Part shown: positions 4,096-46,610 of the stretch, one piece after another
Numbering within the stretch: the first letter of the stretch is position 1
How the letters are laid out: the number at the start of each line of letters is the position of its first letter
DNA from: Escherichia phage EP1
Direction: 5' to 3' (one strand)
Length of the DNA: 64,000 nucleotides
Sequence record: OR892555.1
Made by a program: the position numbers and the translations under genes
Notes under the pieces: model-generated
Told to the model about the DNA's origin: nothing
Seen by the model: only the letters and a program-made list of their open reading frames with translations
Databases searched by the model: none

Positions 4096-4315
4096 TTGAT
4101 ATTACCTCTTGGAAGAATGTACCTTTCAAATCCCATTCAGCTTTATAATCAGTCAATGTGTTAGTATCGAACATTGTATAATATTTGTAATCACCATTCT
4201 TAAACTGGTCATGCAGTGATGGGTTGCAGAACGGAGCTACTGTATCCCTGTCCAAGAATACAGCACCAGATAACACTTTGCGTGTATTTTTACACCTTAC
4301 TAATATTGCTTTCAT
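4088..4315 (-). CDS. hypothetical protein
   Basis: 75-aa ORF in the minus-strand gene array. Confidence 0.45.
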   Translation of the reverse strand: MKAILVRCKNTRKVLSGAVFLDRDTVAPFCNPSLHDQFKNGDYKYYTMFDTNTLTDYKAEWDLKGTFFQEVISNG

Positions 4316-4616
4316 AAAGTACCTTCTCTGTTAACTCGTACAAGTCTACATGTTCAATGCCAGCAATGTCAATACCAAGTTTAGCATATCGCTCTTTGAT
4401 GCCTTCTTTATTTTGAAATATGAGACACCAATGATTTCTTAAAGACTCTTCCAGTTTATCTACACAATCATGAAAGGTTGGTGTGTCACCTCTTGTACCA
4501 ACCATTGCCACAACACCATAAAGAAACTCACCATTACCATATGTGACTTGTGCTACACCAATATCTTTCTCACTATCTTGGATGACAGCTACAAAGGTTT
4601 TACCGTTCAATTCCAT
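4290..4616 (-). CDS. hypothetical protein
   Basis: 108-aa ORF. Confidence 0.5.
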   Translation of the reverse strand: MELNGKTFVAVIQDSEKDIGVAQVTYGNGEFLYGVVAMVGTRGDTPTFHDCVDKLEESLRNHWCLIFQNKEGIKERYAKLGIDIAGIEHVDLYELTEKVLYESNISKV

Positions 4617-4774: not shown

Positions 4775-5044
4775 TTACTTCCTCGTTTTGAGAACTGCCA
4801 TAATTTCTTTGGTATCTTCTAAGAACCATGTGTAGTGATTCTCTTTTATTTCTGGATGAGTGTCAATCTTTAATTTGCAATCTCTTCCAGTATCTTTCAG
4901 TTGAGTTGTGATACCCTTCATAAAGATATGGCACATCACATCATCCATAACCATTGGCATGAAGTCAATGCGCATGTAAGTATCTTTTGGTCTTGGAAGA
5001 AGTAAATAACCTTCTGTATAGAACAGTTCTGTCTCTTGACTCAT
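4775..5044 (-). CDS. hypothetical protein
   Basis: 89-aa ORF. Confidence 0.5.
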   Translation of the reverse strand: MSQETELFYTEGYLLLPRPKDTYMRIDFMPMVMDDVMCHIFMKGITTQLKDTGRDCKLKIDTHPEIKENHYTWFLEDTKEIMAVLKTRK

Positions 5045-5310
5045 TGCTGCTTATTCCCTAACAAAATCATATCAATCAAATTATTGGCTTTCATCGTACA
5101 CTGATAGTACCCATCACGATAAAATTCAAGGGCTTGTGACAGGTCTGTGCCTGTATTACCCTTGACAACGTAGCGTGATTCTTCTTGAGTATACTTATCA
5201 CTTTCACTTACTTGGGAGTTTTTGAACGTAGAGTTCACTTTGTTCATTGAACACCCTGACATAAGTATCAGTAGCACAAATGTTATAAAACTCTGGCTTA
5301 GTCTTTTCAT
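5041..5310 (-). CDS. putative lipoprotein, candidate outer-membrane spanin subunit
   Basis: signal peptide ending in lipobox-like LMSGC; gene overlaps the 3' end of the preceding membrane-protein gene. Confidence 0.4.
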   Translation of the reverse strand: MKRLSQSFITFVLLILMSGCSMNKVNSTFKNSQVSESDKYTQEESRYVVKGNTGTDLSQALEFYRDGYYQCTMKANNLIDMILLGNKQQ

Positions 5311-5551
5311 ATGTCAATACCTCTTTTGTGTGTTTGTTTTTAGCAAGCACGTCTTTCAAATCATTTTTGTAACTGGAGCTAAGATTTGCTAAACCTTCTT
5401 GGTAAGCATCCTTAGCAACACTTACAAGTTTCTGGTTAGTTAACTCTGTTTGAGTGACTTGGTAATCCTTGTAAGAATAACCCCCCCAGACACCTACACC
5501 AATCAGAAAAACAACTATGAAAGCGGCTTGACAGAACTCTTTAAATTTCAT
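5204..5551 (-). CDS. type-II membrane protein, candidate inner-membrane spanin subunit
   Basis: N-terminal TM (AAFIVVFLIGVGVWGG) then hydrophilic domain; overlapped by the lipoprotein gene in another frame. Confidence 0.4.
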   Translation of the reverse strand: MKFKEFCQAAFIVVFLIGVGVWGGYSYKDYQVTQTELTNQKLVSVAKDAYQEGLANLSSSYKNDLKDVLAKNKHTKEVLTYEKTKPEFYNICATDTYVRVFNEQSELYVQKLPSK

Positions 5552-5603: not shown

Positions 5604-6068
5604 TTAACCGAGGACTTTAGCAAGGACATTTGCAGCCATCGTCGAAGCTTTTGCAGCAGCAGCTACGCCAGCTTTGATAGTGCTATCCTTAATGGCAGAT
5701 ACCGTTGCAGCATCAGTAAAGAGATATGTGGTAGTTTGTGAACCACTTGTAAAGGAAAGCATAAGAGCAGTTTCCAGATTGAAAGAACGGTACGGAGCAC
5801 CGGACTGTACAATTCCTTTAGCACCCAACTCTGAAGCCATACCCATGTCATAGATGGTCATCAGGTTTTCTTTATGTGCTGTAGTAGAACCGACACCTTT
5901 AACGTGTTTTGAAACGTTCAGCAGAGCACGATATTCACGGATATCACCATCAGCTTTTACATTGACAGCACGAAAGATTTTGCCATCAAAGTTGCTTTTA
6001 ATGATATCACGAACAACCTGTGATTTGTTTGCTGATGCGTCGATAGCTACTGTAATAATGTTTTGCAT
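5604..6068 (-). CDS. hypothetical protein (154 aa, Ala/Ser/Thr-rich C-terminus)
   Basis: ORF with own terminator downstream; no recognisable motif. Confidence 0.5.
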   Translation of the reverse strand: MQNIITVAIDASANKSQVVRDIIKSNFDGKIFRAVNVKADGDIREYRALLNVSKHVKGVGSTTAHKENLMTIYDMGMASELGAKGIVQSGAPYRSFNLETALMLSFTSGSQTTTYLFTDAATVSAIKDSTIKAGVAAAAKASTMAANVLAKVLG

Positions 6069-11025: not shown

Positions 11026-11199
11026 TTAGTTATGTTTCTTTCCAGTTCCGCCACAATAAGGGCAGCAACCATAACTTACCAGACCTGTACCATCACAATC
11101 TTCACACTCTTCTGCACCAAAATAGTGTTTAGCCAGAAGGTATCCAATTACAATCAGGCCACCAAATGACAGGATTAACTCTAACCAATAACCTTGCAT
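11026..11199 (-). CDS. possible small membrane protein (57 aa) with two CxxCxGxG zinc-finger motifs
   Basis: hand translation MQGYWLELILSFGGLIVIGYLLA...CEDCDGTG...CPYCGGTG; start overlaps the upstream stop in a different frame. Confidence 0.3.
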   Translation of the reverse strand: MQGYWLELILSFGGLIVIGYLLAKHYFGAEECEDCDGTGLVSYGCCPYCGGTGKKHN

Positions 11200-16713: not shown

Positions 16714-17108
16714 TCTACTACCTCCACTTCAATCTTTTCATAAGACATAACATATTCTGGACAGTGTTTGTAAATGAAGTCTTGCAAGATTTTACTATCT
16801 TGTGCAGCAGTCATCAAGGCCACATACTTAGGATTCATCTTCTGGATGTAGCTGTAGAATGAGATATCACCAATCTCGGTTCCCCAATCATCGTCCCAAG
16901 TACCCGTGATGATAATGATTTTATCAAGTAACCAATCAGGAACTACTAAGTTTTCATCCTCTTTGATTGAGTCGATTAACTCCTGAGTGATTGCTAGTTC
17001 ACTGGTGATGTAAAAGCTTGAACCACGACGATGCTCTTTCTCACACTTTCCGTCATCTAACGTGCATTCTTTCAGCACTTCCATTAACGCTTTGGAGATT
17101 TTAAACAT
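16710..17108 (-). CDS. hypothetical protein
   Basis: 132-aa acidic ORF between nrdD and nrdG. Confidence 0.5.
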   Translation of the reverse strand: MFKISKALMEVLKECTLDDGKCEKEHRRGSSFYITSELAITQELIDSIKEDENLVVPDWLLDKIIIITGTWDDDWGTEIGDISFYSYIQKMNPKYVALMTAAQDSKILQDFIYKHCPEYVMSYEKIEVEVVE

Positions 17109-17262
17109 TTTAACTTTCCTCTTAAGTCACAATAAAGGAGTCCTAGACAGAACCCTAGTAAGGTAGAACCGATGAATAAACCAATGATGTTCTCTGCCAT
17201 ATCTAACATCCAATAAAAAGGTGATGCAAGCCTATCAAGACCTACACCACCTTGTCAACTAT

Positions 17263-19404
17263 TTACATAGATTTTCTGTCACGAATTTCAGCAATCTTTG
17301 CATCATTCATTCTTGAAGTTCCCTTGATTTTAGTCCATCCAAGGTAACCACAAACACGGTTAATGACTGAGATATCATGTGAATGACACTTAGGACACTC
17401 TTCAACGTCTGCATTAGGACGATGACCACAATTCTCACAGATTGCTAAGTCAAAGTTCACACCTTGATAGAATCCCTTACCCATACCTCTTGAGACACAA
17501 GCCCTGATAGCTTTATGGTTCTCTGGATTAGCAAGACGAATGTACTGGATGTGACCACCGTTACAGCTATGGAACAGAGGTTCTTCCAAGTCTTGCTTCT
17601 GATACGGAGTAATATCTGCTGCAACGTTCATATGGAAACTGTTAGTGAAGTATTCTTTATCAGAAACATCTTTCACAACACCAAACATATTACGGAACTG
17701 CTTCAATTGCGTCCCACAAAGGCTCTCAGCAGGTGTACCATAAAGGGCATACAAGAAGCCATCTTGCTCTTTAAAGTTTGCCAGACGGTCATTCAGGTAG
17801 TCCAGAACTTGCTGTGCAATCACTTTCTGAGATTCATGCAGTCTACCTTCTCCAGCCAGTACAGAGAGTTCATCCAGTGCAGTTACACCGAAAGAAGCTG
17901 TGAAGGATTTCACAGTATCCCACCCAATCTTATCAGTTGGCTTCTTATCCCCTTTGTACAGGCCACCTTGTGTAAATGCCAGAGGGTTTGAACTTGCTGG
18001 CATATTAGCAATCATCTCATAGCGTTTCTTATGGAAGCTACGAATCATTTCAAGGTATTTGTCAAGCTCTTTCCAGAAGTCTAAACCATTCTCTTTAGCA
18101 TACTGGTAAATCATTGGCAAGTTCAAAGACACTGCACCAATATTTGCACGACCAACGTAGAACTCTTCTCCATTTTCGTCATAGTATGGTGACAGGAAAG
18201 CTCGACAACCCATCGGTGAAATAACCTTACCAGAACGTTCAAAAGATTCTGCAACAGCACCATGACCGGATACACTCAAGAAGTCTGGGTACATTGCTTT
18301 AGAGCAACACTCGATAGCTTTATTGTACAGTTGCCCTTGACAGATATCTTCACTGTGTCTTGTGTGGTCATGAATGTAAACAAGTTTAGGGAACACAACA
18401 GGCTTCTTGTTCTTACCTTGACCATTCATACGAACATCAAGAATAGTGTTTGCAATCATATACTGAAGACGGTTATCTTCGTCAGCCATATCTGAACCAA
18501 GTAAACCAAATGTTAAAGTTGTGAATGCAAAGTCACCACGACTGCAAGGTACGGTATTCAGTTTCATCTCTAGTGACTGGAAACCTTGAGTTAGCTCAAT
18601 CTGTAGCTGTTCCATTACATAATTGTAGTAATGCTCTTTTGGAATCCCATAAGAAGTTGCTTTCTCAGCATGGTAGCGCAAAGACTTCTTAGCATATGGC
18701 ACAAGAATCTTGTCAATCTCTGGGATTGTAAAACCTCCAAATTGTTGTGCAGTTGCTGACAATACAACATCACCGATAACCTGTAAAGCTGACAGAACAG
18801 ACTTAGGTTCACAGTATTCAATTCCAGACATTTCAAAGCCGCCTTTCAGGACTTTACCAATGTCAAACAGGCAACAGTTAATGCCACCAAATACCAAATC
18901 TCTCAGGTCATGAATGTAGATGAAACCTGCTTCAATAGCTTCAAGTTCTTCTGGTGTCAAGTGATACTGCTTGAAGATTTCTTTAGTCAGATATCCACGA
19001 ATGATAGAACCCTTTGTAGAAATTAAGCTGCTGTCAAAGTTAGCATTCTCACGGTCACCTAAGAAGAGGGTGTCTTTAGTCTTCTGATAGAGTTCATCCC
19101 AATTCTGTGCAACCTCTTTACGATAGTTACGATAGGTTGAATAAGATTCGTAAATCTCGTGATTAACCTCTGCTAAAGCCCCTTCAATAATGCTGTGAAT
19201 GTCATCTACAGAAATCAGCAAAGCATTCTGGTTAGAAGCCTTTACAAGAATCCGCATAAAAGCTGACTCAAGAGCATGAACAACTTCTAATGGGAGTTCT
19301 TTATAGCCAACTCGGTTAGCTGACTTTGTAACTGCTGCTAGGACTTTCTTAATATCTGGTTCTTCAAGTGAGCCATTCTTTTTAATAATTTGTACTTTGA
19401 CCAT
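17263..19404 (-). CDS. nrdD: anaerobic ribonucleoside-triphosphate reductase (class III)
   Basis: ATP-cone N-terminus, C-terminal zinc ribbon CENCGH...CPKC and glycyl-radical motif RVCGYLG; start set to ATG at 19404 with GGAG RBS. Confidence 0.9.
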   Translation of the reverse strand: MVKVQIIKKNGSLEEPDIKKVLAAVTKSANRVGYKELPLEVVHALESAFMRILVKASNQNALLISVDDIHSIIEGALAEVNHEIYESYSTYRNYRKEVAQNWDELYQKTKDTLFLGDRENANFDSSLISTKGSIIRGYLTKEIFKQYHLTPEELEAIEAGFIYIHDLRDLVFGGINCCLFDIGKVLKGGFEMSGIEYCEPKSVLSALQVIGDVVLSATAQQFGGFTIPEIDKILVPYAKKSLRYHAEKATSYGIPKEHYYNYVMEQLQIELTQGFQSLEMKLNTVPCSRGDFAFTTLTFGLLGSDMADEDNRLQYMIANTILDVRMNGQGKNKKPVVFPKLVYIHDHTRHSEDICQGQLYNKAIECCSKAMYPDFLSVSGHGAVAESFERSGKVISPMGCRAFLSPYYDENGEEFYVGRANIGAVSLNLPMIYQYAKENGLDFWKELDKYLEMIRSFHKKRYEMIANMPASSNPLAFTQGGLYKGDKKPTDKIGWDTVKSFTASFGVTALDELSVLAGEGRLHESQKVIAQQVLDYLNDRLANFKEQDGFLYALYGTPAESLCGTQLKQFRNMFGVVKDVSDKEYFTNSFHMNVAADITPYQKQDLEEPLFHSCNGGHIQYIRLANPENHKAIRACVSRGMGKGFYQGVNFDLAICENCGHRPNADVEECPKCHSHDISVINRVCGYLGWTKIKGTSRMNDAKIAEIRDRKSM

Positions 19405-19421
19405 TTGTGCTCCTTTATATA

Positions 19422-19446
19422 CGAAAAAGGTCTCCGAAGAGACCCT
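19422..19446 (-). terminator. rho-independent terminator (GGTCTC-cgaa-GAGACC then U-run)
   Basis: read directly. Confidence 0.6.
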
Positions 19447-19450
19447 TATA

Positions 19451-19657
19451 TTAATTCTTTTTGAAAATCTTCTCAACAAACTTTTTGAGTTTGCTGCTAA
19501 TGTCAAGATGGATTTCTAGAATCTCAAAGATTACCCATACTAGCATAGCACCAAACAAAGCACCTTGTTTGATATCAATAAACAGGTTCACAAAGAAGAA
19601 ACCTAAGATAATCATCGGTGCATCAACTGTGAAACCTTCCCACAAACGCTTAAGCAT
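19451..19657 (-). CDS. small two-TM membrane protein with charged C-terminus (holin-like topology)
   Basis: 68 aa; hydrophobic MIILGFFFVNLFI and ALFGAMLVWVIFEIL, C-terminus KLKKFVEKIFKKN. Confidence 0.45.
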   Translation of the reverse strand: MLKRLWEGFTVDAPMIILGFFFVNLFIDIKQGALFGAMLVWVIFEILEIHLDISSKLKKFVEKIFKKN

Positions 19658-19892
19658 TGTTCACCTCTGCCATAAAGTTTTGTAGTGTTCCAACCGGAGT
19701 CAGAACATTGCCATCAGTCTTCATGATGAATGGCATCTGACGAACTGGCATCTGTGCAATATCCATCAGTCCTGACAGTTCATAGTCCTGTCCTAACATT
19801 CTTACAACGTGGTCAATACCACGAGCCTTTGCAAAGTTCTTTGCAGTTTCACACTGAGGGCAACCAGTTTTTGAGTAAATTACGTAAGTCAT
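19650..19892 (-). CDS. glutaredoxin/NrdH-like redoxin
   Basis: 80 aa with CPQC active-site motif near N-terminus; sits beside nrdB. Confidence 0.6.
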   Translation of the reverse strand: MTYVIYSKTGCPQCETAKNFAKARGIDHVVRMLGQDYELSGLMDIAQMPVRQMPFIMKTDGNVLTPVGTLQNFMAEVNNA

Positions 19893-20965
19893 TAAGGAAC
19901 CTCTAAATATCCTGAGTTTAAATCATCTACAACGGTATTCAACAAGTACGCACCGTTTTGCTGTTCTTGGTTAGCATTCTGCTCTTTATCAATTTCCATC
20001 TTCTTAATCATGTATTTCAAAGGTGGTTCTTTAGGAGCTACGAAGTCTCTTGGAATACCAAACATATCATACAATGGTGCAGCGTTATAGTAAACCCACT
20101 CATGCAGAAGTTTTGTATTCAAACCAACTACGGCACGACATTCAGAGAAAATATAATAAGACCATTTCTCTTCACTTTCAACCACTTCATCAAGAATTAC
20201 TTTGATTTCTGGAAGAACCTGACGGAAAGCTTCTTGCCACTCTTCATCTTTCAAAGTTTCTTTCAGTGCTTCAATGTCAATCTTCGTGTGAAGGATTTCA
20301 TCAAGCATAATTTTCTGTACTGCCTGAGCAATACCTTGGAACTTATCTTGTGCATCAAGTGCAAAGGTACATGCAAAGGATGCCATAAAGGATACGCCTT
20401 CCAAGGCTGTTACTGCAAAGAGACCTTTCAAAATCACTTTGTGGAAGTGTAAAGGGTCTTTCTCAAGCAGTGAATCACGAACATAGCCTAAGCGATAGTT
20501 GATACCTTCGTCAAGTAGTTCTTCCAGTGCTCTGTTCACAGTCTTCAGACGGTCTTGCACAGCAGCATTCTGGTTAATCTCATCAAGGATTGTTTCAGGA
20601 TTCTTAATACACTGACGAACAATCTCTGAATAAGTCAAGGCATGAAGGTTCTCAATTTCAGATTGCTTCATAATTGCCGTTGCGTAGATATCATCAGAGA
20701 TGAATGGTGCAAAAGCAAATGCCAAACTCTTAGCAACCTGTGTATCAGCTTCCCACTGCCACTTAAGAATCTCAAGCATTACACCAGACATTGATTCTGG
20801 AACGCTTTCAAAGTCTAATCGTGACTGTTCAAACGGGAACTCATCTTCAGACCAGTCTTGTGCTTTCTGCTGTTTATACAGTTCAAAGATTTTTGGATAG
20901 TGTTTGTTGAGTGAGTCAAAAGTTTTTCGCTCACTCCCTAAAAAGATTGGATGTTGGTTAATCAT
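19892..20965 (-). CDS. nrdB: ribonucleotide reductase small (beta) subunit, class I
   Basis: 357 aa with R2-type di-iron ligand spacing; adjacent to nrdA. Confidence 0.9.
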   Translation of the reverse strand: MINQHPIFLGSERKTFDSLNKHYPKIFELYKQQKAQDWSEDEFPFEQSRLDFESVPESMSGVMLEILKWQWEADTQVAKSLAFAFAPFISDDIYATAIMKQSEIENLHALTYSEIVRQCIKNPETILDEINQNAAVQDRLKTVNRALEELLDEGINYRLGYVRDSLLEKDPLHFHKVILKGLFAVTALEGVSFMASFACTFALDAQDKFQGIAQAVQKIMLDEILHTKIDIEALKETLKDEEWQEAFRQVLPEIKVILDEVVESEEKWSYYIFSECRAVVGLNTKLLHEWVYYNAAPLYDMFGIPRDFVAPKEPPLKYMIKKMEIDKEQNANQEQQNGAYLLNTVVDDLNSGYLEVP

Positions 20966-21237
20966 TCTGGTAGTTTTCCTGTATTAAGAAATTCTCTGGC
21001 TTCAGATGTTGTCATTACAATCCAACGTTCAGTTTTAAACATATCAAGTGACCTTGCGTATGTCTGTCTAGGATTGAAACAATCAGTGTAGCGTATATGC
21101 TCTTTCCAAGAACCATCTGGCATCTTAACTTTTAAATCCAAATCTGCAATATAATACAGTGATTTTCTTGGTGCATAATACAAATACAACGAGCTATCTT
21201 TACTTCTTAGACTTGCAGCTTTGATAAGTTCTAGCAT
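20962..21237 (-). CDS. hypothetical protein inserted between nrdA and nrdB (start moved to internal ATG)
   Basis: ATG at 21237 with GGAGA RBS lies 55 nt after the nrdA stop; the longer track ORF overlaps nrdA. Confidence 0.35.
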   Translation of the reverse strand: MLELIKAASLRSKDSSLYLYYAPRKSLYYIADLDLKVKMPDGSWKEHIRYTDCFNPRQTYARSLDMFKTERWIVMTTSEAREFLNTGKLPE

Positions 21238-21292: not shown

Positions 21293-23527
21293 CTAAACAC
21301 CGCAACCCTCGCAGTAAGCATCTTGTAGTGCTGACTTACCAACACCGATACGACTGTTAAGGTAGTACATAGTCTTCATACCAACTGAGTTAGCATAAAT
21401 CATGTACTTCAAAGCTTGCTCTAATGATACCTTTTTCGATTTTGAATAGTCAACATAGAAATCTGAAGAGATAGCTTGACCAGTGAATTTTTGAACAATT
21501 GCATAGCAATCAATCATATCAAAGGTGTCAATATCCCAAGCAATTTCATAGACATACTTCAATTCTTCGTAATCTGGAACGATGAACAGGACGTTACCAG
21601 TTGCTGACTTCTTGGTTAAGATGAAGTCACGAATTGGATACAAACCATTTGTCGTATTAGTTGCCAGTGAAGAACTCTCGTTAGGCATGTAAGCCTCAAG
21701 TACAGAGTTTCTAATACCACCGTTTGCTTTAATACGGTCTGCTAAGTCATCCCAATCATAACGAAGTTTTGCATCGTGTTTTGTATCAATCTTCCTGTTA
21801 GCTGTCTTCGGAGGAACCCAACCTTCAGGGTACTTGGTGAACTTCATATATTCAGGTACACCACGTTCTTTTGCAAGTCTTAATGAAGCCTCATGCAGAT
21901 AGTAAGAGTGCATCTCTGCGAGTTCATGTAGCTTCGTTTTACCTGCTCTTGAAGAATAGTTCACGTAGTTCTTCGCAAGGTAATGAGCCACATTCGTAAG
22001 ACCAATCCCAACAGAACGACGTTTCTGAACGTGGTTACGCATTGACGGATACGGATAGTCCATAAGGTCAATAACGGAGTCAACCATTGCAAGAGCATAA
22101 TAAGCAACGTCAGCGTATTCATCTTCTGTGATTCTCCCTGCTACCAGACTAGCCAAGAAGCAAAGAGCAACTTCACCATCTTCTTTAGGTGCTGTGTAAC
22201 TGTAAAGGTCACGTTCATCTTCGAATCCGTGAACTGGCAATACAATTTCCATACACAAGTTAGACATTTTCAAAGGTTCTTTAAACGGTGTGTGAGTGTT
22301 CGCATTGTTCGTAAAGAACGGATACACACGACCTGTAGCATAACGTTGCTGGATGAACAACTTAGCAACTTCACGAGCCTTAACACGTTTATGCTTAACA
22401 CCTGAATGAACTGCGTGACCGACTGCCATAGCAAATTCATCAGCAGATGCTGTGTAGAACATGTCATAAAGCTTTGGAGCGTCCTTGTAAGAGAACAGCA
22501 ACCAATCTGTGTCGTACTGTACACACTGCCAGAAGTAATCATTTGCACCAAATGAATAATCCATCTCATTAATACGCTTAGAAGGAACCGTTGTAGGATG
22601 CTTCAAACGTAGTAAATCTTCAATCTGCGGGTCTATGGCAGTGTAGAAGTTGTTAGCTGAACCACCACGACTCTTCTGTTTATTAGCCTCTACAGCAGCC
22701 CGTACAAGTTTGTAGTAAGGCAGCTTACCCATGTGTTCAATGGTGTTTTGACGAATACCATCACCAATTGTACGGGTCTCCATCAGCATACCAATACCAG
22801 CTTGCTTCGTGGTCATATCATAAGCTACCTTAGTAGCAATACCAAGAGACTCAGCAGTGTCATTAGCCTTAATTAAGCAGCATGACGCATAACCTGACTT
22901 AGTAGCACGTAAACCATTCAGATAAGGCGTAGGAGCGTTAATCTTCAGGTCAGACAGGTAAGTATACAGATTGATAACATCTTCCAGTCTACGGTGCTTA
23001 GGTTGTCTCTCAAAGGCTTTCATAGCCATACCCATAAACATAAACTGTGGAGACTCAAACAGACGACCTGACTTGATATCTCGGATACCGTATTTGTCAC
23101 GGAACTGTTTCAGTACTGCATAGCCGTAAGAGATATCTTTTGAGTGAACAATGTGACCTTGCAAATAGTCAATCTCTTGTTCTGTGTAATCCATGTGTTC
23201 CCACAAACCCATTTGTTCCATCTTCATAACGAAGTTGAACAGTTGAGGAACTTTTGTGAAACCACCAAAAGCTTCTTTATAGATGATGCCAAGAAGTAAA
23301 CGACCAGCCATATCAGAGTATTCTTGAGTCTGCTTATCAATACAAACGTCAATCATAGCTTGGTGCATCTCTTTGGTAGAGCAACCTTCATAGACACGCT
23401 TCATAGCTTCCATAGTTACTTCTGACCAAATGATTCCTCGTTTGTCAGCCCATGAAGCCCATTTGTTTAAACGTTCTGGTTCGAATGGTACGATTGTACC
23501 GTCAGATTTGCGAATGGTCTTAATCAT
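21293..23527 (-). CDS. nrdA: ribonucleotide reductase large (alpha) subunit, class I
   Basis: 744 aa, ATP-cone N-terminus, C-terminal CEGCGV cysteine pair. Confidence 0.9.
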   Translation of the reverse strand: MIKTIRKSDGTIVPFEPERLNKWASWADKRGIIWSEVTMEAMKRVYEGCSTKEMHQAMIDVCIDKQTQEYSDMAGRLLLGIIYKEAFGGFTKVPQLFNFVMKMEQMGLWEHMDYTEQEIDYLQGHIVHSKDISYGYAVLKQFRDKYGIRDIKSGRLFESPQFMFMGMAMKAFERQPKHRRLEDVINLYTYLSDLKINAPTPYLNGLRATKSGYASCCLIKANDTAESLGIATKVAYDMTTKQAGIGMLMETRTIGDGIRQNTIEHMGKLPYYKLVRAAVEANKQKSRGGSANNFYTAIDPQIEDLLRLKHPTTVPSKRINEMDYSFGANDYFWQCVQYDTDWLLFSYKDAPKLYDMFYTASADEFAMAVGHAVHSGVKHKRVKAREVAKLFIQQRYATGRVYPFFTNNANTHTPFKEPLKMSNLCMEIVLPVHGFEDERDLYSYTAPKEDGEVALCFLASLVAGRITEDEYADVAYYALAMVDSVIDLMDYPYPSMRNHVQKRRSVGIGLTNVAHYLAKNYVNYSSRAGKTKLHELAEMHSYYLHEASLRLAKERGVPEYMKFTKYPEGWVPPKTANRKIDTKHDAKLRYDWDDLADRIKANGGIRNSVLEAYMPNESSSLATNTTNGLYPIRDFILTKKSATGNVLFIVPDYEELKYVYEIAWDIDTFDMIDCYAIVQKFTGQAISSDFYVDYSKSKKVSLEQALKYMIYANSVGMKTMYYLNSRIGVGKSALQDAYCEGCGV

Positions 23528-23546: not shown

Positions 23547-23572
23547 TGAAAAGGGTCTCCGAAGAGACCCAT
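23547..23572 (-). terminator. rho-independent terminator (GGGTCTC-cgaa-GAGACCC then U-run) upstream of nrdA
   Basis: read directly. Confidence 0.6.
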
Positions 23573-36514: not shown

Positions 36515-36760
36515 ATGTTAAAATTATTGATACCAGCTTTAGTATTCTTACTGGTGGGGTGCAACCCTTCTTATGAGAATAAGGATGCCTCTTACAGACT
36601 TCCTCCAGAAATGCAAGACTGCAAGATTTACAAGCTTAATGGTGATGCCATTAGCAAAGATGTTATTGTAGTTCGCTGCCCAAATTCTCAGACGACAACT
36701 TCTTACAAGTATGGTAAGAATAATCAGTCACACACCACAGTTTTTGATGGAGGATATTGA
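36515..36760 (+). CDS. putative lipoprotein
   Basis: signal peptide with LVGC lipobox. Confidence 0.5.
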   Translation: MLKLLIPALVFLLVGCNPSYENKDASYRLPPEMQDCKIYKLNGDAISKDVIVVRCPNSQTTTSYKYGKNNQSHTTVFDGGY

Positions 36761-38244: not shown

Positions 38245-38625
38245 ATGAAAAAGATTATGGTAGGTGTCATTCTGGCAACTCTGAGTTTTGGTGCATCAGC
38301 TATGAAGATGCCTGAAGCAGACTTTAGCAAGGTCTCTATGGAGGCTTGTCAGATTGTTCGTAAAGTCGTAACAGATGCTGGAGAGTTGACTAAACCGTTA
38401 TCTTCTCCAACTGTAATGGAAATGTCTGACCGTATCACTGATTACAATTACCGTGTGATGGCAGACTACTACGAAGCTGTTTCTGATGCTATGGTCACTC
38501 AGGATGTTGACTTGCTTGATGACAAAGACATTGAGAAGGTTGAAGATACTAAGCGTGACATGATGGATGAAACTTTTAAAGGTGTTCATTATTTTGTTGA
38601 AAAGCGTACTTGTGTAGGTTTATGA
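38245..38625 (+). CDS. secreted/periplasmic hypothetical protein
   Basis: N-terminal signal peptide MKKIMVGVILATLSFGASA. Confidence 0.5.
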   Translation: MKKIMVGVILATLSFGASAMKMPEADFSKVSMEACQIVRKVVTDAGELTKPLSSPTVMEMSDRITDYNYRVMADYYEAVSDAMVTQDVDLLDDKDIEKVEDTKRDMMDETFKGVHYFVEKRTCVGL

Positions 38626-41297: not shown

Positions 41298-42194
41298 ATG
41301 TCACAAGCAGATGTAAGCTACAAAAATATCCTGAACCATGTTTTAACAGTTGGTGAGCAGCGTAAAACCCGAACTGGTTCTGTAATTTCAACGTTCTCAC
41401 CTCCAGAGTTTCGTTTTGATATGCGTACTGGTTTCCCTTTACTGACCTCTAAACAGGTTCTGACAAGACAAGTTATCGGGGAAGCTTTATGGTTCTTGAA
41501 CGGTGAGAATAAACTTGGTCATCTTCGCTATCGTACTTGGGGAGAAAACGATGGGGAACGTTGGACAATCTGGACAAATGACTTTGAACGCTGGCTTAAA
41601 ACAACATATGCAAGCGAGCAAGACTGGTTAGAGGATGCAGGTGGACGAATCTACGGTGTTCAGTGGAGAGCCTCAGAAGGTCATGGTGGCGTTACAGTTG
41701 ACCAGTTAGACAATCTGATTACCAAGATGAAAAAGTCTCCTACAGACCGTTACATGCTGGTTAACGCTTGGAATGCTGCTGATATCTCAGCTAATGCAAT
41801 GGCTTTACCACCTTGTCATGTGCTTTTCCAGATTTACATCTCGAATACTGGTGAAGTGGATTTAAAATGGTATCAACGTTCTGTAGACAGTTTCTTAGGT
41901 TTGCCATTTAACATTGCGTCTTATGGTTTCATCTTAGAAGTGCTTTGCAAGATGACTGGCTATACACCTCGTTATCTGATTGGTACTTTTGGTGACACTC
42001 AGATTTATCAGAACCATATGAGTCAGGTATTCCAGCTTTTAGGTAATGAAGAGTTTCCTGCACCGAAGTTTGAGATTGTTCAAGATTTGAAATGTCTGGA
42101 TGACCTAAAACATATGACTGCAAGTGACTTTATCGGTGGTTTCAAAGACTATCGACATGCAGGGAAGATTGAAGCTCCCTTGTCAGTAGGTTGA
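41298..42194 (+). CDS. thyA: thymidylate synthase
   Basis: active-site ALPPCHVLFQIY and WYQRSVDSFLGLPFNIASY match the ThyA signature. Confidence 0.9.
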   Translation: MSQADVSYKNILNHVLTVGEQRKTRTGSVISTFSPPEFRFDMRTGFPLLTSKQVLTRQVIGEALWFLNGENKLGHLRYRTWGENDGERWTIWTNDFERWLKTTYASEQDWLEDAGGRIYGVQWRASEGHGGVTVDQLDNLITKMKKSPTDRYMLVNAWNAADISANAMALPPCHVLFQIYISNTGEVDLKWYQRSVDSFLGLPFNIASYGFILEVLCKMTGYTPRYLIGTFGDTQIYQNHMSQVFQLLGNEEFPAPKFEIVQDLKCLDDLKHMTASDFIGGFKDYRHAGKIEAPLSVG

Positions 42195-42200
42195 TAGATA

Positions 42201-42240
42201 CAAAAAAGGCTCCTTTTTACGGGAGCCTTAAACTTATTTT
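42201..42240. terminator. bidirectional rho-independent terminator at the convergence of plus and minus blocks (A-run, GGCTCC-loop-GGAGCC, T-run)
   Basis: hairpin flanked by A-tract and T-tract between thyA stop and the converging minus-strand gene. Confidence 0.6.
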
Positions 42241-42608
42241 TTCTTAGCATTTTGAGTGTTCTGTTCAGTGATTGCTTGCAAAGCTGATACAGATTGTGCT
42301 AGGTTGTTAACACTGTCAGAGAATTTATCAAGGGTCTTGGTCAACTTGGCGTTTTCACCCTTTACGTTCTCTAGCTGAACCTTCTGGTTCTCCATGCCTA
42401 ATTGCAGGAGTTTCATGTCAGACTGTAAATCACGAATAGCTGAATAGTTGCTTTTGTTGTAACTATCTAGCTGCTGTAACTTTGTCGAAACGGAAACTTC
42501 CTGCTTCCCACTAGACACCTGCATTGTAGTGTACATACCAATTACACTGAAGATACCCACAACAATTGCACCAATGTTATTTTTGAAAGCATCCTCTAAC
42601 CACTTCAT
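42234..42608 (-). CDS. membrane-anchored coiled-coil protein
   Basis: N-terminal TM IGAIVVGIFSVIGMY then heptad-like Q/L/N-rich region. Confidence 0.45.
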   Translation of the reverse strand: MKWLEDAFKNNIGAIVVGIFSVIGMYTTMQVSSGKQEVSVSTKLQQLDSYNKSNYSAIRDLQSDMKLLQLGMENQKVQLENVKGENAKLTKTLDKFSDSVNNLAQSVSALQAITEQNTQNAKKK

Positions 42609-42802
42609 TCTTTCTCCCCTTTAAAGGCTTTTTCCAAGTTATTAACAAATTCATCATCAATAGGCGTATCTGTCTTACTCGCAAGGTATCTTGCAAGTCT
42701 GAAGAAGGCTTTCTCAATCATGTATTCACTCAGAAGGGAAAGTAGAAGTTTCCAGAGGAAGCTACCCAAGTTTTTTAAGAGGATTACTAGGATAGTCGGC
42801 AT
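42605..42802 (-). CDS. small hydrophobic/amphipathic protein
   Basis: 65-aa ORF with ILVILLKNLGSFLWKLLLSLL. Confidence 0.4.
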   Translation of the reverse strand: MPTILVILLKNLGSFLWKLLLSLLSEYMIEKAFFRLARYLASKTDTPIDDEFVNNLEKAFKGEKE

Positions 42803-45461: not shown

Positions 45462-46610
45462 TTAAGCAGTTCTCTGCCATACATATAGAACAAATGATGG
45501 CTGTTCAATGTTAAATGCCTGACCAGAACCAGTTGAGCCAGTTGTACCAGAGTGAGAGTGTTCACCTGCACCTGTAACAGTTACAGTAGCCGTATGCGAG
45601 TGGCTACCAATTGATACAGAGTGGCTATGAGCACCAATCGCTACAGTATGAGTGTGCGCACCAATCGCTACAGTGTGCGTATGGTTGTTAGCGGTTGTCA
45701 GAGTGGCTCTTGGGTCATAGTCTGCACCAACTACTGAAAGTCCCGGATGACTCCCTGGGTCATAACCACGGTTAATCCACGTTGTCTGAGTGAATCCAGC
45801 AGAACTCGTAGTTTTATTACCATAGTTAAATGATGATGTGGTCTTAGTACCATAATCAAATGTTGTAGTGCTTCTATTCCCATAGTCAAATGAACTGATT
45901 GAAGCAGTTGCACCATGTGAGTGACCACCACCTGTAACGTACACTGAGTGAGTGTGAGCAGGGATGTTATTAGCTGTCAATGCAGCAGTCTGTGAACCAA
46001 ATGTCGAACCTGCTGGTCTAGAAGCACTGTCATAACCTACAAGCGCTCTACCTCTTGAAACCAGTTCCCAAGTACCTCCACAAATCAGGTAAGTAGATGG
46101 GTTAGCAGCATTCATCGACAAGTGGATAGTACCAACTGGATATGAAGCCTGAACAGCTCTGTATAGACTATTAACTGCTCTTGCTGTAGCATACTTATCA
46201 GCATCTTCATTATATGCGTTGGAGGCTAACCAGTTCTGAACATTACCCAAACCAACTTGTGATTTAGTTGTGTTGTGAGGGTTATTCTTATCATTAATGT
46301 GAGCCTGAATAAGTTGATTAACTTCATCAGAAGACATAATCTGTAAGTTCGCTCTTGCTTCAGCTACGTCAACGATATCTGATAAGTTATTTGCAGCGAC
46401 AAGCTGTAAAGCATTTAAGACATTACCTAATTCAACCTGAACTTTTGTGACACCGTGAGGGTTATTCCTCAAGGATGCGTGAGGGTCAAGTAGTTGTTCA
46501 AGTGTACATCTCTTGTCTTCAATACCTTGTTTAAGGTGGAAGATATCACTTAACTCAATTGGTAATGATGCTTGAGGCAAGGCACTAATTTGAATTTCAC
46601 CTACTGCCAT
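45462..46610 (-). CDS. tail fibre protein (paralogous tip with His-x-His and FDYG repeats)
   Basis: 382 aa; SSFDYGNRSTTTFDYGTKTTSSFNYG and HTHTVAIGAHTHTVAIGAHSHSVSIGSHSHT; C-terminal tail similar to the 845-aa fibre. Confidence 0.7.
   Translation of the reverse strand: MAVGEIQISALPQASLPIELSDIFHLKQGIEDKRCTLEQLLDPHASLRNNPHGVTKVQVELGNVLNALQLVAANNLSDIVDVAEARANLQIMSSDEVNQLIQAHINDKNNPHNTTKSQVGLGNVQNWLASNAYNEDADKYATARAVNSLYRAVQASYPVGTIHLSMNAANPSTYLICGGTWELVSRGRALVGYDSASRPAGSTFGSQTAALTANNIPAHTHSVYVTGGGHSHGATASISSFDYGNRSTTTFDYGTKTTSSFNYGNKTTSSAGFTQTTWINRGYDPGSHPGLSVVGADYDPRATLTTANNHTHTVAIGAHTHTVAIGAHSHSVSIGSHSHTATVTVTGAGEHSHSGTTGSTGSGQAFNIEQPSFVLYVWQRTA

Follow-up and report, generated by a model that had tools for sequence, protein, structure and literature searches.

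A conserved, predicted two-helix membrane protein of Felix O1-like phages is a candidate accessory factor of the infected cell and probably not the holin

We analyzed a 64,000-nucleotide (nt) stretch of the genome of Escherichia phage EP1 (OR892555.1; hereafter the window) and focused on a short gene that encodes a 68-amino-acid (aa) protein and lies between the glutaredoxin gene (grx) and nrdD. The original prediction, made from the letters of this stretch, had described the product as a holin-like membrane protein that could be a displaced holin, an antiholin or lysis-timing factor, or a superinfection-exclusion protein. We found that the open reading frame (ORF) is a real, conserved gene under purifying selection, that it corresponds, as the orthologue in Suspvirus, to Felix O1 gp116, and that its family is small and confined to the Ounavirinae. 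The reading we favor, with a probability of about 0.45, is that the protein is an accessory factor that conditions the membrane of the infected cell through helix-helix contacts. Its most plausible role would be exclusion of the kind exerted by T4 Imm, a small inner-membrane protein with two transmembrane domains (TMDs) that is made early and blocks entry of superinfecting T-even DNA. The 68-aa protein is unlikely to be the holin through which the soluble endolysin is released, a role that better fits a pair of 124-aa and 65-aa proteins encoded after the tail fiber genes. Felix O1-like phages (Ounavirinae) are widely used in Salmonella typing and biocontrol, and the gene encodes one of the very few conserved small membrane proteins of the genome and the sole one with two helices.

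Results

A small membrane protein family of the Ounavirinae

By sequence identity, the window is that of a Suspvirus, a Felix O1-like myophage of the subfamily Ounavirinae. Escherichia phages EcSzw-2 and EcSzw_1 share 99% identity with the 1.1 kb around the 68-aa gene; SUSP2, mistaenkt and CHB7 (Suspvirus, Ounavirinae) share 96-98%, and ~250 Felixounavirus and Mooglevirus genomes ~84%. The protein (MLKRLWEGFTVDAPMIILGFFFVNLFIDIKQGALFGAMLVWVIFEILEIHLDISSKLKKFVEKIFKKN) matched phrog_4532 with an E-value of 3.8e-37, residues 1-67 aligning with profile positions 1-67 of 68, and was 60-96% identical to 18 database proteins; PHROG 4532 is annotated as function unknown. The Felix O1 orthologue, at the same genomic position, is ORF116 (NP_944998, 'hypothetical membrane protein'), and further orthologues are AVU07_agp065 of SUSP1 and bas63_0066 (46375..46581) of Bas63. 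ORF116 has been described as 'Membrane protein (2 TMD), 68 aa' (Whichard et al. 2010, PMC3185647).

The ORF was intact in 257 of the 257 GenBank records that contain the region (tblastn). It was also intact, at 66-68 aa, in all 27 loci recovered from IMG/VR, each with the overlap with a CPQC glutaredoxin and the same downstream hairpin, and a scan of IMG/VR with the gp116 family returned nothing outside Felix-like contigs. Pairwise Nei-Gojobori estimates across ten lineages, with synonymous divergence (dS) of up to ~1.8, gave a median ratio of nonsynonymous to synonymous divergence (dN/dS) of 0.28 for the 68-aa gene, 0.10 for grx and 0.03 for nrdB.

The family has a narrow reach. A profile search of 1.84 billion cluster representatives yielded only three credible clusters, two groups of 68-aa proteins and an 82-aa protein, P0022; the matches P0021 and P0023 were long repetitive sequences and were rejected as spurious. 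P0022 is a true remote homologue (hhalign probability 96.7%, 25% identity over 63 columns), and the reciprocal tblastn search against Felix O1-like phages gave an E-value of 3e-7. It is encoded on a 16-kb contig (L011; Logan SRR27912342) of an uncultured Ounavirinae-like phage, whose nrdB-grx DNA is 78% identical to Suspvirus and which carries nrdA, nrdB, grx and the P0022 gene and lacks nrdD and nrdG. On this contig the P0022 start overlaps the grx stop by 8 nt, and a different hairpin (GCCTCC-TTCG-GGGGGC followed by T4) occupies the same place. Because overlap and terminator are retained here without nrdD or nrdG, the conserved partner of the gene is the nrdAB-grx unit with its terminator rather than nrdD. 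The gene order of the contig is otherwise syntenic through phosphoribosyl pyrophosphate (PRPP) synthetase and NAMPT. In the Erwinia Ounavirinae we detected no gp116 homologue, though the pair of genes corresponding to Felix O1 gp78 and gp79 is conserved there. The 68-aa protein had no Pfam match at E<=1 and no NCBIfam or PDB match in profile searches, and Foldseek of its model against BFVD gave no fold match (best E 2.8).

A predicted helical hairpin with a nearly invariant second helix

In a hydropathy analysis, the 68-aa protein is hydrophobic around residues 13-27 and again around residues 32-49, and a four-residue loop, DIKQ, joins the two segments. An AlphaFold2 model built with 18 homologues placed helices at residues 2-27, 29-51 and 54-66, with moderate confidence (mean predicted local distance difference test score 68.5). 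The tail past residue 49 has a net charge of +4 (+2 to +4 across all lineages) and is strongly amphipathic, with a hydrophobic moment of 0.53-0.71 in five of six lineages and of 0.35 in the remote homologue P0022. The two hydrophobic segments and the highly charged C-terminus named in the original prediction were thus borne out. Across the family the loop is neutral or acidic, with a net charge of 0 to -2, and by the positive-inside rule the combination of a basic tail with such a loop favors a predicted topology with both termini in the cytoplasm (N-in/C-in). The family has zero Cys and no conserved His.

Conservation is concentrated in the second helix, which is almost invariant (Q31-G32-x-x-F35-G36-x-M-L-x-W41-x-I-x-E45-I-L), and helix 1 and the tail are variable. 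The G32xxxG36 motif was present in all family members examined bar P0022. Unchanged in nine Felix-like lineages are M1, L2, G8, D12, A13, F26, D28, Q31, G32, F35, G36, M38, L39, W41, I43, E45, I46, L47, I49 and K56, and conserved acidic residues mark the membrane boundaries (D12, D28, E45 and, as E or D, position 48). At the DNA level, codons 38-47 (19517-19546) show hardly any synonymous variation between lineages; within the second helix the ATG, TGG, ATC and CAA-GGT codons do not differ among nine lineages, and GTA and CTA hardly do. This scant variation hints at nucleotide-level constraint or recent exchange, beyond selection on the protein.

The gene overlaps grx and closes a transcription unit

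The 68-aa gene follows directly on the grx cistron, and its ATG overlaps the glutaredoxin stop codon TAA (ATGCTTAA). Such an overlap was found in 37 of 37 loci (27 from IMG/VR and 10 others) and measures 8 nt, or 11 nt in the ESh22 lineage. Because start and stop overlap, ribosomes that terminate on glutaredoxin would probably re-initiate on the 68-aa gene. At its other end, a terminator hairpin begins four nt past the stop codon, with the Shine-Dalgarno sequence and ATG of nrdD no more than 20 nt later. This hairpin is identical in all Felix-like lineages and is annotated as a terminator in phage KhF3; in Felix O1 the terminator t116 is listed as ggtctcttcggagaccttttt (PMC3185647). The true start of nrdD is the ATG at 19404, and since it and its Shine-Dalgarno sequence lie so close behind the terminator, a 747-aa TTG-initiated ORF that overlaps the 68-aa gene is an artefact of ORF listing. 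The ORF map and a Pfam match (PF00462) for glutaredoxin confirmed the placement between nrdD and a redoxin gene, and the coupling to grx and the hairpin with its run of five T residues uphold the claims that the gene sits in a nucleotide-metabolism operon and has its own downstream terminator. Rfam and repeat scans of the locus found only this terminator.

The 16-nt hairpin GGTCTCTTCGGAGACC has exactly two matches in the window, both on the minus strand, with 0.02 expected by chance. The second copy, also followed by a T-run, lies directly upstream of nrdA, so that identical hairpins bracket nrdA, a 91-aa ORF, nrdB, grx and the 68-aa gene, which is the last cistron. The upstream terminator of Felix O1, t111, has a different sequence. 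A -10-like hexamer stands directly before each copy (TAATAT and TCTAAT); a transcript that started there would escape termination because its start falls within the 5' arm. In Felix O1 the putative promoter P117 was placed in the 3' end of ORF116 (Whichard et al. 2010, PMC3185647). The window has TTGAGA-N17-TAATAT in this region, but its -35 element is not shared by Felix O1, and we therefore dropped the claim of a conserved sigma-70 promoter for nrdD.

Expression data from Felix O1 agree with this arrangement. In reverse-transcription PCR, ORF112, ORF114 and ORF115 (nrdA, nrdB and grx) peaked at 25 min, and ORF117 and ORF121 (nrdD and nrdG), which lie past t116, peaked at 60 min together with structural genes 72-77 (Whichard et al. 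2010, PMC3185647). Because the genes on either side of t116 differ in this way, a functional boundary at the terminator is supported, and the timing of the operon partners implies synthesis of the 68-aa protein in mid-infection.

Bearing on the holin label

Felix O1 gp116 was listed among five possible holins on the criteria of size, two TMDs and a charged tail (Whichard et al. 2010, PMC3185647). Since the original prediction argued from the same grounds, its holin idea had already been published in 2010; the protein belongs to a catalogued family, and its candidacy as a holin is fifteen years old. Support for the label is topological, and small size, two TMDs and a charged tail are non-specific traits. 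The 68-aa protein shares with class II holins its small size, two TMDs, predicted N-in/C-in topology and charged C-terminal domain. This part of the class II reading stood, and the remainder found no support in family matches, start codons, TMD1 or linkage. The protein is not a member of any curated holin family or structure group (Pfam, PHROG lysis families, NCBIfam, PDB, BFVD). It has no conserved dual start, the sole second Met (M15) being Ala in the Felix O1 lineage; a dual-start motif that gives a holin/antiholin pair is common in holins and not obligatory. As regards the pinholin subtype, TMD1 (APMIILGFFFVNLFI) is rich in Phe, Ile and Leu and does not resemble a signal-anchor-release (SAR) domain. 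The Felix O1 endolysin, gp35, is without an N-terminal hydrophobic segment and is soluble; because it has no N-terminal TMD, a pinholin would be insufficient and a large-hole holin required.

The gene also has no linkage to a lysis cassette: it lies 14 kb from the spanins, the window contains no orthologue of the Felix O1 endolysin, and the gene is coupled to grx. It had been described as far from a candidate endolysin/spanin cluster. The distance from the spanins is correct, but the cluster consists of spanins only, which are the only recognizable lysis genes near the left end of the window. We rejected as an endolysin the 154-aa ORF beside them (5604-6068, minus strand), which belongs to PHROG 2267 (function unknown), has no Pfam match and is not a lysozyme; it has the same length as the Felix O1 endolysin. 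According to the literature, lysis genes are scattered in the Felix O1-like group, and the linkage test therefore discriminates weakly. On the coding strands of the window, the 68-aa protein is the only small protein with two TMDs.

Two published screens include orthologues. By CRISPRi-ART in SUSP1, agp065 (phrog_4532) had a fitness value of 0.33 (p 0.73, four guides) and was scored 'Not Fit', and nrdA (agp061) was scored 'Fit' (Adler et al. 2025). In the text of the PhageMaP knockout study of Bas63, the segment from ~46,000 to 66,000, which includes bas63_0066, is described as uniformly nonessential on four E. coli hosts.

Gene neighborhood and other membrane proteins of the window

We mapped the genes of the window through the annotation of mistaenkt. 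A long leftward block runs through rIIA/B, the spanins, NAD and PRPP genes, nrdG, nrdD, the 68-aa gene, grx, nrdB and nrdA; a rightward block holds polymerase, ligase, frd and td; and a leftward late block extends from terminase to the tail fiber, with two small membrane proteins at its end (Table 1).

Table 1. Features of the 68-aa gene locus and lysis-related genes in the window
Feature	Position	Strand	Details
o-spanin and overlapping i-spanin	5041..5551	-	i-spanin 5204..5551; o-spanin 5041..5310, lipobox LMSGC
nrdD, anaerobic ribonucleotide reductase large subunit	17263..19404	-	next transcription unit past the terminator
Intrinsic terminator (Felix O1 t116)	19421..19447	-	hairpin GGTCTC-TTCG-GAGACC 19429-19444; T5 19424-19428
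68-aa two-helix membrane protein, Felix O1 ORF116/gp116 orthologue (PHROG 4532)	19451..19657	-	ORF, profile match, hydropathy, model, dN/dS
Translational-coupling junction	19650..19667	-	Shine-Dalgarno GAGGTG 19662-19667; ATG 19655-19657; grx stop TAA 19650-19652
Glutaredoxin (grx), 80 aa, CPQC active site	19650..19892	-	PF00462, 29.7 bits; phrog_22
nrdB, class Ia ribonucleotide reductase beta subunit	19892..20965	-	ORF and mistaenkt annotation
91-aa conserved hypothetical protein (Felix O1 ORF113, PHROG 2652)	20962..21237	-	between nrdA and nrdB
nrdA, class Ia ribonucleotide reductase alpha subunit	21293..23527	-	the unit begins with this cistron
Second exact copy of the 16-nt hairpin with T-run	23547..23569	-	hairpin 23554-23569; directly upstream of nrdA
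124-aa protein (Felix O1 gp79, PHROG 4038)	42234..42608	-	one N-terminal TMD, coiled-coil tail
65-aa small membrane protein (Felix O1 gp78, PHROG 402)	42605..42802	-	overlaps the start of the 124-aa gene

The two small membrane proteins after the tail fiber genes, to which the original prediction had pointed, are real. Authors from the Center for Phage Technology (CPT) annotated the 124-aa protein as a class III, T4-like holin on topology (phage Mushroom genome announcement). Homologues of the 65-aa protein extend beyond the Ounavirinae to Erwinia phage phiEa21-4 (gp73) and to Hafnia, Aeromonas and Cronobacter phages, and in the T4-like phage Phi1 a PHROG 402 homologue (ORF252) lies between the tail-fiber gene 37 and holin t. 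In Felix-like phages and in Erwinia phiEa21-4 the order is tail fiber, 65-aa protein, 124-aa protein and terminators; by synteny with Phi1, the 124-aa protein thus occupies the position of t. In SUSP1 the 65-aa orthologue agp027 (phrog_402) was 'Fit' by CRISPRi-ART, one of only 19 such genes, and the annotated 'putative holin' agp028 (phrog_4038, the 124-aa orthologue) was not (Adler et al. 2025). By gene order, the 124-aa and 65-aa pair is a better-placed holin candidate than the 68-aa protein, and the 65-aa protein may be a lysis or a tail-fiber-assembly factor.

Several other short ORFs of the window encode possible membrane or secreted proteins. Just past the nrdD terminator (17218-17253), at 17084-17209 (minus strand), is a 41-aa ORF with a single hydrophobic helix (MLDMAENIIGLFIGSTLLGFCLGLLYCDLRGKLKCLKSPKR), which is unannotated in mistaenkt; the Felix O1 membrane ORFs 118 and 119 have no counterpart in the window, and only this ORF fills the gap. 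At 11026-11199 (minus strand) a 57-aa protein combines an N-terminal TMD with CEDCDGTG...CCPYCGG, two CxxC pairs that resemble a zinc ribbon. By position alone, beside nadV, it seems to correspond to Felix O1 gp131, a further holin candidate of 2010. An 81-aa protein in the polymerase-ligase block (36515-36760, plus strand) has the lipoprotein signal LVFLLVGC and could be an outer-membrane lipoprotein comparable to those with which certain phages block their own receptor. The ORF at 38245-38625 encodes a 126-aa protein that has a signal peptide.

Discussion

In the reading that we favor, the 68-aa protein would form a helical hairpin in the inner membrane, with cytoplasmic termini, a four-residue periplasmic turn and a basic amphipathic helix on the cytoplasmic face. 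It would be made from mid-infection by re-initiation after glutaredoxin. Its fixed GxxxG helix may associate with itself, with a host or phage membrane protein, or with both, and this association would condition the membrane of the infected cell, an accessory role dispensable in the laboratory. By analogy with T4 Imm, the consequence could be a block to DNA entry by superinfecting phages, and on this analogy superinfection exclusion is compatible with the data. The two-TMD topology is that of Imm-type proteins, and pre-late synthesis is suggested by the 25-min peak of the operon partners.

Several points weigh against this reading. The main one is that a strictly core, coupled gene is atypical of arms-race accessory genes: with its universal presence and fixed position, it has more the look of a core function. 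Exclusion genes, for their part, often differ from one relative to the next. The idea of an Imm-like or exclusion role is drawn entirely by analogy, from a protein that is small, two-TMD, pre-late and non-essential, and the 68-aa protein has no homology to any known exclusion protein. The PHROG scan returned only phrog_4532 and no immunity or exclusion family, and the profile search of 1.84 billion proteins found its own family only and no Imm. As to dispensability, endolysin, spanins and annotated holin likewise went undetected in the CRISPRi-ART screen (Adler et al. 2025), so the 'Not Fit' score of agp065 is weak evidence, and the PhageMaP support for bas63_0066 is a description of a segment in the text, not a per-gene value. 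As to lysis, it 'remains a mystery' in Ounavirus according to Adler et al. (2025), who write that Felix O1 'lacks an identifiable holin', and because the Felix O1 endolysin ORF35 also peaks in the 25-min class (PMC3185647), as does the grx operon, timing alone does not argue against a lysis role.

We consider it unlikely that the 68-aa protein is itself a holin or co-holin, that is, a class II protein that accumulates from mid-infection, oligomerizes through GxxxG and forms holes that release the soluble lysozyme. The generic fit (68 aa, two TMDs, a basic hydrophilic C-terminus) would suit such a protein, as would GxxxG, a helix-helix packing motif that is invariant in the family except P0022, the status of the gene as a core gene in all 257 relatives and as the sole small two-TMD candidate on the coding strand, and an expression class shared between ORF35 and the grx operon. 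It was also listed by Whichard et al. (2010), the Ounavirinae holin is regarded as unidentified (Adler et al. 2025), and the lysis genes of this phage group are in any case dispersed. However, the protein resembles no curated holin family or structure and has no conserved dual start, its gene is translationally coupled to a redox enzyme within an operon for deoxynucleoside triphosphate (dNTP) synthesis, and no homologue was detected in the Erwinia Ounavirinae, which do retain the gp78/gp79 pair. Moreover, the place that corresponds to holin t of Phi1 is taken by a candidate whose topology resembles that of T. The SUSP1 knock-down and the Bas63 segment that the PhageMaP text describes as nonessential point the same way, both weakly. 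An antiholin or modulator of lysis timing, made before the holin, bound to its membrane or short cytoplasmic segment and dispensable for lysis, is improbable. The gene does belong to an earlier transcription unit than the late tail-fiber operon with the 124-aa candidate, appears non-essential in CRISPRi-ART and, by the text description of its segment, in PhageMaP, and has a highly conserved membrane helix, in keeping with a specific helix-helix partner; rIIA and rIIB are also present in Felix-like phages. T4 RI, however, binds the periplasmic domain of T, and the 68-aa protein cannot act like RI because its four-residue loop leaves essentially no periplasmic domain. The gene is not linked to a lysis gene either, and nothing suggests lysis inhibition in Felix-like phages.

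Its position invites a different explanation, a dedicated membrane partner of the phage glutaredoxin (Grx) and aerobic ribonucleotide reductase (RNR), whose amphipathic tail would recruit or regulate Grx/NrdAB; we give this a low probability, and there is a slim chance that such a hairpin tethers or regulates dNTP synthesis at the inner membrane. If true, it would be an unrecognized link of phage nucleotide metabolism to the cell membrane. The overlap with grx is kept in every locus, even in the 25%-identical P0022 lineage without nrdD and nrdG, and stop-start coupling often marks proteins made in a fixed ratio. Non-homologous small membrane proteins lie directly after grx in Erwinia phage phiEa104 (72 aa, two TMDs) and directly upstream of nrdH in T4 (gp55.8, 70 aa, predicted). 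With no Cys and no conserved His, however, the 68-aa protein itself lacks any redox or metal chemistry, its gene evolves ~3 times faster than grx, and no part played by the membrane in RNR function is known to us. Because phage genomes often contain small membrane ORFs, the adjacency may be chance. Because three phage groups with related glutaredoxins (Maynard, PaulScherrer and Yut2) have no membrane protein beside grx, this adjacency is not general, and we rejected it as a rule. A non-functional ORF, kept in place by DNA signals for an nrdD promoter, the terminator or the grx 3' end, has almost no probability. In its favor are the putative promoter P117 in the 3' end of ORF116 (PMC3185647), the -10-like TAATAT that overlaps the stop codon and the second-helix codons with little synonymous change. 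Against it stand a dN/dS of 0.28 at dS up to ~1.8, a frame and length kept in >280 genomes, a strong Shine-Dalgarno sequence and a hydrophobic/amphipathic pattern kept at 25% identity.

If the protein is an exclusion factor, as we favor, or a Grx/RNR partner, a core gene of these phages gains a function. The holin of the Ounavirinae is an acknowledged question, for which the 68-aa gene is not the best candidate.

Comparison with known systems

Class II holins, represented by the phage 21 pinholin S21-68, are defined by function and topology (Wang, Smith & Young 2000). The 68-aa protein resembles S21-68 in being small, with two TMDs, a predicted N-in/C-in topology, a basic C-terminus and a glycine-based packing motif in TMD2. 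It differs in having no sequence or fold similarity, a strongly hydrophobic TMD1 and no dual start, and its gene is not beside the endolysin gene, belongs to a mid-infection dNTP operon and would have a soluble endolysin as its partner. The 124-aa protein invites comparison with T4 holin T and class III holins, with which it shares one N-terminal TMD and a large C-terminal domain; its gene comes after the tail fiber and PHROG 402 genes, as t does in Phi1. It is not homologous to T, however, since it belongs to PHROG 4038 and T4 t to PHROG 860, and its tail is a coiled coil.

Other small membrane proteins stand beside redoxin genes. Erwinia phiEa104 gp107 (72 aa, PHROG 23748; 4268-4486 on the Kolesnikvirus sequence L006) is likewise a two-TMD protein encoded directly after grx. 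T4 gp55.8 (70 aa, PHROG 1930; 42116-42328 of T4, L016) is a predicted membrane protein beside nrdH, encoded upstream of the redoxin, whereas the 68-aa gene is downstream. Neither is homologous to the gp116 family (hhalign probability <1%). The likeness to T4 Imm is that of a small, two-helix protein of a virulent myovirus, probably pre-late and apparently dispensable for plaques; the differences are the absence of homology and the status of the 68-aa gene as a fixed core gene coupled to grx. The closest comparison is with the Felix O1 gp116 family itself. Identity is ~63-65% to Felixounavirus members and 94-98% to Suspvirus members, with the differences mostly in helix 1 and the tail, and the 68-aa protein shares with the family its length of 66-68 aa, its position between grx and nrdD, the overlap, the terminator and the conserved second helix.

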